Virus record (IMG/VR): IMGVR_UViG_2851955134_000003 | Coordinates: 1-41,806 of that record | Length of the DNA stretch: 41,806 bases | Direction: 5' to 3' (one strand) | Origin: a virus | Lineage: Duplodnaviria > Heunggongvirae > Uroviricota > Caudoviricetes | Shown here: positions 10,239 through 11,444 of the stretch, one piece after another | Numbering within the stretch: position 1 is the stretch's first letter | Layout: the number at the start of each line of letters is the position of its first letter | Made by a program: the position numbers and the translations under genes | The notes under the pieces: model-generated | Seen by the model: the letters and a program-made list of their open reading frames with translations, nothing else | What the model was told of the DNA's origin: nothing | Database searches by the model: none

Positions 10239-10253
10239 TTCATATCTCCTTAG

Positions 10254-10266
10254 CCCCACCGTGGGG
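10254..10266. promoter_or_regulatory. Candidate Mnt/Arc operator CCCCAC-C-GTGGGG in the divergent arc-mnt intergenic region
   Basis: 13-bp palindrome with core CCAC(C/G)GTGG, similar to the core of the P22 Mnt operator as I recall it; lies between divergent RHH genes. Confidence 0.45.
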
Positions 10267-10358
10267 CAAAACAATTGTCACACCGTGCGTCATTGATGTC
10301 AAGCACACGGTGAGGCATACTTCAATCATTGCAAGTAACTCAATATTTGGTGAAGAAC

Positions 10359-10790
10359 ATGAGCAGAGAAGATCCACAACTAAGGATCAGACTTCCCGTT
10401 GAAGTAAAAGAAAAAATAGAAATTTCTGCAAAAGCCAATAAGCGATCAATGAACGCTGAAATAGTACAACGTCTTGACACCAGCTTTCTGAAAGATATTC
10501 ATGAAGATGACGTAATTTCTGCTTATGAAGCAAAAATTATTGCAAACAATGCACGGCATGAAATATCAAATATTATTTTCAAAAGAACCTTTAATGAAAT
10601 TAATAAGAAAATAACACTTGGACATACAAGTTTTTATATAAACCTTAATGACCTTGAACTGGAATCACTTGCAGATAATGATTACCAGATCATCTTTGAA
10701 AAAACATTTAATAAGCTCAATGAACTAGGTTACATCATCTGTGAAAACTCATGGGATGCAGATGGTTTTGGAATTGAAATACCTGAATAG
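10359..10790 (+). CDS. Mnt-like ribbon-helix-helix repressor with ~90-aa C-terminal extension of unknown function
   Basis: 143 aa from ATG 10359; N-terminus REDPQLRIRLPVEVKEKIEISAKANKRSMNAEIVQRL closely parallels P22 Mnt (RDDPHFNFRMPMEVREKLKFRAEANGRSMNSELLQIV); C-terminal domain has no obvious relatives; AT-rich. Confidence 0.7.
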   Translation: MSREDPQLRIRLPVEVKEKIEISAKANKRSMNAEIVQRLDTSFLKDIHEDDVISAYEAKIIANNARHEISNIIFKRTFNEINKKITLGHTSFYINLNDLELESLADNDYQIIFEKTFNKLNELGYIICENSWDADGFGIEIPE

Positions 10791-10880
10791 GAAGAACAAA
10801 AGGCGTGTACATATTACACGTCTTTAATACAATTGAAAAACGCCACATTACTGATGTATGTTACAACAAGGAGCGATATT

Positions 10881-11444
10881 TTGAAAACCATATCTATATT
10901 AAAGGTTGCATTAGGCGTCGCTATTATTTTGACTCTCTCAATATTGTTTTATTTTTACCACAAAAAAACAGCTATTGCTCTTGATGGTCACGCGGCAAAC
11001 TCATTTTTCTCAGAGTACATAGTGCCGCTATCAGGAAGCGGTATAACAAATAAATATACTGACTATGACATCAAATATGGAATTGATGATGGGGAGACTA
11101 TTGTATTACATGTAATCATTAAAAACCTAATGACAGTAAATAAAAATACAGACTTCAACGATAAAAATACAATACATCACAACAACAGCAAAACATTAAT
11201 TTCTTATAGTAGCAACATCTATACGGATAAATACCTAAAATACATCTCAGAAGATACAATAAAAGCAACCAGCGAAAAGTTAAAAAACATATATTGTGCA
11301 TCCGGCAGTTTTCACAAATTATCGCCGCAAGAGCGTTTATTCTACGAAGCAAGAAAACAACGTAAGTCAATAATATTACATTATTATGCTGATTCAGGGG
11401 AGTCACTCATATTTAATATTGGGGTTTCCCCTGAATCATGCTAA
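10881..11444 (+). CDS. Hypothetical signal-anchored membrane protein; candidate superinfection-exclusion factor downstream of mnt-like gene
   Basis: AT-rich ORF; probable TTG start 10881 (RBS AAGGAG 7 nt upstream; alternatives ATG 10854 or ORF start 10833); N-terminal TM helix ILKVALGVAIILTLSILFYFY then Asn/Lys/Tyr-rich soluble domain. Confidence 0.5.
   Translation: MKTISILKVALGVAIILTLSILFYFYHKKTAIALDGHAANSFFSEYIVPLSGSGITNKYTDYDIKYGIDDGETIVLHVIIKNLMTVNKNTDFNDKNTIHHNNSKTLISYSSNIYTDKYLKYISEDTIKATSEKLKNIYCASGSFHKLSPQERLFYEARKQRKSIILHYYADSGESLIFNIGVSPESC

Follow-up and report, generated by a model that had tools for sequence, protein, structure and literature searches.

The stretch of DNA analysed here, which we call the window, comprises the 41,806 nucleotides of IMG/VR virus record IMGVR_UViG_2851955134_000003, from a tailed phage of the class Caudoviricetes. 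Positions 9054-11444 of the window probably (at about 0.65) hold a complete immI module of the P22 type with a long-form Mnt repressor, carried by a temperate podovirus prophage resembling Escherichia phage TL-2011b, together with an unrelated passenger gene for a membrane protein. The 3 kb around the repressor and membrane-protein genes is 97% identical to TL-2011b, and positions 10239-11455 are 100% identical to a prophage that lies beside yfgH and yfgI in E. coli strain 3908. Following the genes for the ejection proteins, the membrane-protein gene and long mnt lie on the plus strand and an arc-like gene and ant on the minus strand, after which come morons and the tailspike gene.

A long-form Mnt repressor

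The repressor gene (10359-10790, plus strand) encodes 143 residues, with a ribbon-helix-helix (RHH) fold at about residues 1-46, a linker, and an alpha-beta-alpha-beta-beta domain at about residues 55-140. Residues 2-46 match the Pfam Arc family (PF03869) at 54.5 bits, against a cut-off of 20.4 (E 1.1e-14), and residues 3-45 match the solved structure of P22 Mnt (1mnt, E 3.5e-7). Comparison by hhalign of a profile of 33 homologues with P22 Mnt gave 97% probability over residues 2-41. An earlier sequence-only reading of this DNA had likened the first ~45 residues to P22 Mnt, and these searches bear that out. Residues 1-13 (MSREDPQLRIRLP) are invariant or nearly so among the 33 homologues, which fits the invariant operators described below.

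A search of 5.8 billion proteins returned 262 homologues at E<=1e-3. The 120 best are mostly 142-151 residues long and align over 99-100% of the query at 58-69% identity; their hosts include Citrobacter, Enterobacter, Salmonella, Klebsiella, Yersinia (Y. pestis among them), Proteus, Morganella and Xenorhabdus, and among these 120 matches listed, no homologue from another genus exceeds 69%. The protein also matches phrog_1388 from end to end (241.7 bits, positions 1-143 of 143), and its RefSeq name is 'Arc family DNA-binding protein'. The view that the C-terminal ~90 residues have no relatives therefore does not hold. Among deposited phage genomes the long form occurs only in TL-2011b, one Pseudomonas Pf phage (40% identity) and one faecal contig, and the P22-like phages all have short Mnt. 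The E. coli alleles of long mnt differ with a ratio of nonsynonymous to synonymous polymorphism (pN/pS) of 0.00-0.13. Long-form Mnt is thus a widespread variant of Mnt, already catalogued in PHROGs and RefSeq without a function; a literature search brought up no work on the family or on TL-2011b gp39/gp40.

Base composition had been offered as a mark of horizontal acquisition. The repressor and membrane-protein genes are indeed AT-rich, at 32.2% and 32.6% GC against 47.7% for the window, and the E. coli allele of long mnt (32% GC) is the most AT-rich of 17 sampled loci. In 16 of the 17 family loci, however, the gene has a GC content below that of the surrounding 8 kb, so low GC is a trait of the family and not a sign of recent import. 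The accompanying argument from AGA/AGG codons, weak evidence in any case, applies to the repressor gene (4 of 7 arginine codons) but hardly to the membrane-protein gene (only 1 of 3).

The deposited TL-2011b genome differs from the window within this gene. At 7359-7400 of that genome, corresponding to window positions 10385-10387, one extra G turns AAGG into AAGGG in codons 9-10 and truncates long Mnt after 14 residues; RefSeq annotates only an internal open reading frame (ORF) of 114 residues. Four E. coli prophage copies are intact. The extra G is either a sequencing error or the mark of an mnt-null phage unable to keep ant silent, and it gives only a hint on the need for Mnt in lysogeny.

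Operators and promoters of the control region

Within the 120-bp control region, CAC-N-GTG heptamers occur about 25 bp apart at 10257-10263, 10281-10287 and 10306-10312. The whole window contains nine such heptamers, equal to the chance expectation, and three of the nine fall within these 56 bp, so the clustering is not due to chance. When the region was aligned for 15 loci from 13 genera, 13 of them had the sites at approximately -103, -78 and -53 relative to the start codon of mnt, with sites 2 and 3 present in all 15. They lie inside a nearly invariant core of 60 bp with variable flanks.

Site 1 (10254-10266) is the palindrome CCCCAC-C-GTGGGG to which the sequence-only reading had drawn attention. 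It lies 3' of the -10 hexamer of the ant promoter, between that leftward -10 and the Shine-Dalgarno sequence of the arc-like gene, which is the position of the mnt operator in P22. Its position and core are kept in 13 of the 15 aligned loci, and judged by its sequence it is a genuine, conserved operator-like site. Site 2 (TGTCACAC-C-GTGCGTCA, 10276-10292) lies in the spacer between the two hexamers of the leftward promoter, as the arc operator does in P22; it is identical in 13 of the 15 loci and carries one to three changes in the Citrobacter and Morganella loci. Site 3 (10303-10315) falls within the spacer of the rightward promoter and stands at exactly -53 in 10 of the 15 loci and between -51 and -55 in the others; the family consensus for it is CCCCAC-N-GTGGGG. 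The annotated mnt operator of P22 is AGGTCCAC-G-GTGGACCT, just downstream of the arc operator in the Pant spacer, and a CCAC-N-GTGG core is common to both phages. With operators at equivalent positions and this common core, the layout is one shared with P22.

The leftward, Pant-like promoter (10274-10302, minus strand) has the sigma-70 form TTGACA-17-GACAAT with a TG before the -10, and gave 10 of 12 matches in the promoter scan; its -35 and -10 hexamers are invariant in the 15-locus alignment. The rightward, Pmnt-like promoter (10293-10321, plus strand; TTGATG-17-CATACT) was read by eye, as it falls below the scanner threshold in the window. Its family consensus is TTGATG, 17 nt, CATAAT, the E. 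coli allele having CATACT at the -10.

arc, sar and ant in an apparently mobile cassette

The remaining genes of the module follow on the minus strand. The ant gene (9054-9998) encodes an antirepressor of 314 residues with a Pfam P22_AR_N match of 150 bits (E 3.6e-44) and matches to phrog_524 and phrog_245 'anti-repressor Ant'. The arc-like gene (10071-10238) encodes 55 residues with the beta-strand CQRRVRFP; it matches phrog_228 'Arc-like repressor' (E 3.4e-5) and is named an Arc-like repressor by RefSeq in TL-2011b. Over the arc-ant junction, on the plus strand, lies a sar-type antisense RNA (10000-10067) that matches Rfam RF00262 over the full model at 45.2 bits (gathering threshold 43, E 1.6e-7). 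It is preceded by a promoter-like TTGATA-17-TATACT at 9964-9992 and contains a terminator-like hairpin (10043-10062) with a T-rich tail (TCGCTGTTTT) behind it; the z-score of its fold is -3.0. Long mnt is thus divergent from arc and ant, sar lies between arc and ant, and a conserved, symmetric operator-like sequence overlaps the start region of the ant promoter. This arrangement supports the assignment of long Mnt as a Mnt-type immI regulator, as far as sequence and position can tell.

The association recurs across the family. We examined 17 loci, namely Enterobacter and Y. pestis prophages together with 14 loci from a species-level genome scan, and 16 of them (13 of the 14 from the scan) have an Arc-like gene of 55-58 codons upstream of long mnt, on the other strand. 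In the Enterobacter and Y. pestis prophages long mnt diverges from a 55-residue gene that is followed by a Bro-N or P22_AR antirepressor, and an antirepressor gene lies beyond the arc-like gene wherever checked. The cassette sits among siphovirus-type tail genes in Enterobacter, Y. pestis, Kluyvera, Citrobacter, Xenorhabdus, Proteus and others: in a lambdoid prophage of Y. pestis it is found between tail genes K and I, and in Enterobacter beside the tape-measure region. From these sequences, the long-mnt/arc-like cassette appears to behave as a mobile unit whose operator specificity is always the same.

The C-terminal domain

Mnt of the P22 type has about 83 residues, and its C-terminus is a single tetramerisation helix. 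The protein studied here does not have that form. Modelled with AlphaFold2 from the family alignment, it reached a mean predicted local distance difference test score (pLDDT) of 81, with values of 84-95 over residues 61-140. The RHH is followed in the model by a long helix (55-87), a strand (91-95), a second helix (106-123) and two strands (126-133 and 136-140) that form a beta-hairpin over 126-140. The possibility that the extension is simply the Mnt coiled coil is thereby answered in the negative: the domain, as modelled, is more than that.

The C-terminal 93 residues, used alone as the query of an exhaustive HMMER search, drew only 17 representatives. Ten of these are proteins of 138-148 residues with the domain at about 51-142, and all seven proteins read among the ten have an RHH-like N-terminus. 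That such a search yields mostly long RHH proteins indicates a domain that is conserved and, in sequence space, nearly confined to the RHH fusion. Profile searches with the domain found its own family and no match informative of function; Pfam, NCBIfam, PADLOC and PDB sequence searches gave no usable match, and no result points either to or away from a sensor. BLAST alignments to short Mnt proteins reach residues 84-100 at 30-40% identity, while the hhalign alignment ends at residue 41.

By analogy with the tetramerisation helix, the most likely role of the domain is to hold RHH dimers together in higher oligomers. A different role, as an autonomous protein- or ligand-binding module (for example the target of an anti-Mnt factor or a signal) that would make immI inducible, strikes us as doubtful. 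It would fit the Foldseek search against viral models, in which phage proteins of about 85-99 residues matched ~96 model columns with probabilities up to 1.0 and a TM-score relative to the target of 0.6-0.69. It would also fit weak matches to phrog_31943 and phrog_5321 (77 and 92 positions), which are limited to the C-terminal part, and the invariant polar residues R76 and T77. The Foldseek E-values, however, are only about 4e-3, the targets are all uncharacterised, with no informative structural relative among them, and in sequence space the domain is nearly confined to RHH fusions.

The membrane-protein gene

The passenger (10881-11444, plus strand) is an orphan gene encoding 187 residues from a TTG start. 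This codon lies 7 nt after the Shine-Dalgarno sequence AAGGAG (10868-10873), RefSeq annotates the coding sequence with the same start, and phrog_8033 (187 positions) matches over its full length from exactly that residue; TTG 10881 is therefore the most likely start, in preference to 10833 or 10857, which we rejected. A transmembrane (TM) helix at about residues 8-26 precedes a soluble domain of ~155 residues, which probably faces the periplasm, and cysteines 146 and 187 are conserved. Among the 5.8 billion sequences the homologues form only four near-identical clusters. The gene is found in TL-2011b alone among phage genomes and in 35 of 5426 complete E. coli genomes, always beside the same mnt allele. 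It is an AT-rich, lineage-restricted moron. Among five alleles with few substitutions, most pairs give a pN/pS of about 0.2-0.45, which indicates that the gene is probably real.

Searches of Pfam, NCBIfam and PDB sequences gave no match for the whole protein or for the soluble domain, leaving only its own phrog_8033. The structural model, with a pLDDT of 60, was compared with the AspS/PA3611-like periplasmic alpha/beta fold, and these fold matches are only a lead. The sole PADLOC match, to Thoeris ThsB (15.2 bits, E 0.005, 75 residues), was judged compositional, and ThsB was ruled out: Pfam is empty even at E 10, the modelled fold is not flavodoxin-like and no ThsA lies nearby. A virion or lysis role is also unlikely, since the late operon runs on the other strand and the gene sits alongside mnt. 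A promoter of its own was dismissed because the promoter scan gave no more than the level of shuffled sequence.

The slot beside the ejection genes

As the sequence-only reading had pointed out, the location mirrors that of mnt and sieA in P22. Gene order and orientation match, and the membrane-protein gene occupies the sieA-equivalent slot, between the ejection-protein genes and the tailspike gene and beside immI. SieA blocks DNA injection, and escape mutations map to the ejection proteins gp16 and gp20 (PMC10883804). The slot is variable. The last ejection-protein gene, which encodes 1004 residues, is present in 43 E. coli genomes, and 35 of the 43 have long mnt and the membrane-protein gene. 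Three others carry in the slot an unrelated protein of 175 residues with an N-terminal TM helix (WP_000451652, phrog_21690; locus L043, 4448-4975). One more genome, and a sequence type 131 (ST131) prophage with different core proteins, carry a protein of 98 residues with two hydrophobic segments (WP_001555166; L045, 3180-3476, and L047, 3680-3976). In the Klebsiella relative Kp4865-1 the internal virion protein is followed by a different, non-membrane gene of 204 codons, and mnt is lacking. A variable slot with membrane proteins as occupants, together with the SieA precedent, favours a role in exclusion. Judged from position, the most likely function of the membrane protein would be to block DNA delivery by related phages at the envelope. 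We also observed that the prophages with the 175- or 98-residue occupant are without mnt and arc and retain only a truncated, inverted fragment of ant.

An effect on the host would be another use for such a protein. As a lysogenic-conversion factor it would act on the host envelope or fitness, for example in serum resistance, adhesion or secretion, with no anti-phage role, and an AT-rich moron on the lysogeny strand whose two conserved cysteines would fit a periplasmic disulfide lends this some appeal. Against it, the fold matches are only a lead, Pfam and PDB sequence searches are empty, and a gene that lies beside the ejection genes and is swapped for unrelated membrane proteins resembles sieA more than a virulence locus. 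We consider lysogenic conversion possible but unlikely. A broader proposal, which we hold only tentatively and think rather improbable, joins two ideas. The slot would be a hot spot at which unrelated small membrane proteins arose time and again to block DNA delivery, its known occupants being the 187-residue protein, the 175-residue phrog_21690 protein, the 98-residue two-segment protein and P22 SieA, and 10881-11444 would found a new family whose periplasmic, possibly pilotin-like domain would capture incoming T7-type core proteins. Separately, the extra domain of long Mnt would be a signal receiver, through which the antirepressor switch could be inducible by something other than the SOS response.

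Two neighbouring genes rather than one system

The sequence-only reading had also coupled the immI regulator to a partner effector encoded next to it. The regulator part stands, but the pairing does not: of the 17 family loci that we examined, none has the membrane-protein gene after long mnt. What follows long mnt in other genera is tail genes, a gtrA-like gene, a DinI-like gene, a gene for a soluble protein of 224 residues, or no gene on the same strand. The two genes are found together in a single E. coli prophage lineage only. They are separated by 90 bp, and between them lies a hairpin, AAAGGCGTGTA-CATAT-TACACGTCTTT (10799-10825), a possible bidirectional terminator that is terminator-like on the minus strand and has a weak T tail on the plus strand. 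By the whole-window heptamer count, no CAC-N-GTG operator-like site stands in front of the membrane-protein gene. The unconserved pairing, the hairpin and gap, and the missing operator-like site together indicate that the two genes are not a system.

One could still suppose a single defence or exclusion system, in which the C-terminal domain of the repressor responds to a signal and the repressor controls the membrane protein as its effector. The genes are adjacent, co-oriented and both at ~32% GC, they are always together in the 35 E. coli genomes having either, and the C-terminal domain is globular, confidently modelled and marked by R76 and T77. Yet the long-Mnt family is widespread without the membrane protein, its downstream genes vary by locus, the genes here are parted by the hairpin and the 90-bp gap with no operator-like site before the second, and PADLOC offers no system match except the one 15-bit ThsB match; a single system is very unlikely. 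A type II toxin-antitoxin pair, formed of an RHH antitoxin and a membrane-acting toxin, would have the usual layout in that the RHH gene comes first, but the RHH gene keeps its arc-sar-ant partners across genera and not its downstream gene, the same gap and hairpin intervene, and no toxin family is matched. With the pairing not conserved, the partner absent from all other family loci examined and no recognisable toxin, we rejected this idea, to which we give next to no credence.

Proposed working of the module

Family, context and operator sequences enter this account as observations; DNA binding and its effect we infer from them. In the lysogen, long Mnt would occupy the CCCCAC-N-GTGGGG sites, shutting off ant and limiting its own synthesis, and after infection the Arc-like protein and sar would damp ant as in P22. 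The C-terminal domain may link RHH dimers so that the spaced operators are filled cooperatively, a role assigned by analogy with the Mnt tetramerisation helix. The membrane-protein gene lies on the strand of mnt, like P22 sieA, and is therefore probably expressed from the prophage; its single-pass product, with a probably periplasmic domain, would most likely block the DNA delivery of related phages at the envelope.

Several observations weigh against this account. Site 3 is degenerate in the E. coli allele (GCACAC-G-GTGAGG), and the outward-facing strand residues (Q, R/K, R) are alike in the Arc-like and Mnt-like proteins, so the two may share sites. For the C-terminal domain, oligomerisation is pure analogy, the profile comparison could not extend the Mnt homology into the long helix, and stand-alone phage proteins of ~90 residues appear from the models to share the fold, which would fit autonomous function. 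The exclusion role is drawn from position and membrane anchoring, the structural model of the membrane protein is poor, and two lysines on each side of the TM helix make its topology ambiguous. The two 9/12 promoter-like sites upstream of its gene are no commoner than in shuffled sequence. For both families, the literature searched held no binding, repression or exclusion experiment on any member.

Neighbouring genes of the prophage

The late genes of the window lie on the minus strand, and the last three encode internal-virion (ejection) proteins: a member of the T7 gp14 family, an SLT transglycosylase of 905 residues and the 1004-residue protein. The gene for the last (11456-14470, minus strand) closes the late operon and is convergent with the membrane-protein gene. 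Its tblastn matches are labelled 'internal virion protein' in podoviruses of Vibrio, Ralstonia and Pelagibacter, and the genes next to it carry the annotations 'transglycosylase SLT' and 'virion core protein, T7 gp14 family'. A 45-bp piece at its 3' end (11462-11506) has a 100% match in ~36 other E. coli genomes, 17 of which are listed, ST131 isolates among them. In the one locus examined, an ST131 prophage, the piece carries no annotation and has other core-protein genes on one side and the same moron region on the other; it resembles a joint left by mosaic recombination.

On the other side of ant, two plus-strand genes were noted. An ORF at 7860-8726 encodes 288 residues (36% GC) with three predicted N-terminal TM segments and matches phrog_3630, with no Pfam match. 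Sister prophages have a YafO-family toxin or a DUF2335 gene at this position, which is thus another variable moron slot. At 8816-8980, a protein of 54 residues has an N-terminus resembling a signal peptide and a tail rich in Gly, Cys and Arg (phrog_14503 'membrane associated protein', WP_000708858). All nine E. coli prophage variants for which we read the annotation carry it unchanged, and Klebsiella phage Kp4865-1 has a close relative.

Significance and comparison with known systems

As it stands, the locus is an ordinary module of a well-understood kind, with two uncharacterised parts that are already in PHROGs and RefSeq without a function. If long Mnt works as proposed, it would belong to a portable lysogeny-control module with one fixed operator specificity that has reached prophages of both podovirus and siphovirus type in many enterobacterial genera, Y. 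pestis and clinical Enterobacter among the hosts. Prophages with the cassette in common might then regulate one another's antirepressors. Mnt is among the best-studied small repressors, and the extra domain adds an uncharacterised part to it. The membrane protein matters only if it is an exclusion factor, in which case it would represent a second, unrelated way of blocking DNA delivery by short-tailed phages.

The likeness to SieA (PMC10883804) is one of place: in each phage a membrane-protein gene separates mnt from the last ejection-protein gene and shares the strand of mnt. The proteins themselves differ. There is no sequence similarity (BLASTP E 0.15, over a TM segment only), and the SieA motif FxRYPxEAxxFNK is absent, with two of nine motif positions matching in the BLASTP alignment. 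The two belong to different PHROGs (8033 against 7745 for SieA), and one TM helix with a 155-residue soluble domain contrasts with three or four TM helices in SieA (three in P22). Homology to SieA of types A-C fails on similarity, motif, PHROG and TM count and was rejected.

Arc/Mnt-domain proteins with long C-terminal regions occur in Pseudomonas Pf filamentous prophages (PMC7549136), and in phage PfAC03 a tblastn match covers long Mnt residues 1-125 at 40% identity. These proteins share the fusion of an Arc/Mnt-type RHH to a longer C-terminal region, but they come from another phage type and context, in which no arc-sar-ant module is described.

The closest relative remains P22 immI. There gene 16 is followed by sieA and mnt on the other strand and then by arc, sar and ant, and the same order and orientation are found here, with a Mnt-type RHH protein, a sar homologue above the Rfam threshold and a P22_AR_N antirepressor. 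The repressor differs in having 143 rather than 83 residues, with an added alpha/beta domain and confident homology only to residue 41. Three related palindromes are present, whereas P22 has one mnt operator and a dissimilar arc operator, and the Arc-like and Mnt-like strands here carry identical DNA-facing residues. The host phage, too, has internal core proteins of the T7 type and is not P22-like, and the cassette, unlike that of P22, also occurs among the tail genes of siphovirus-type prophages.

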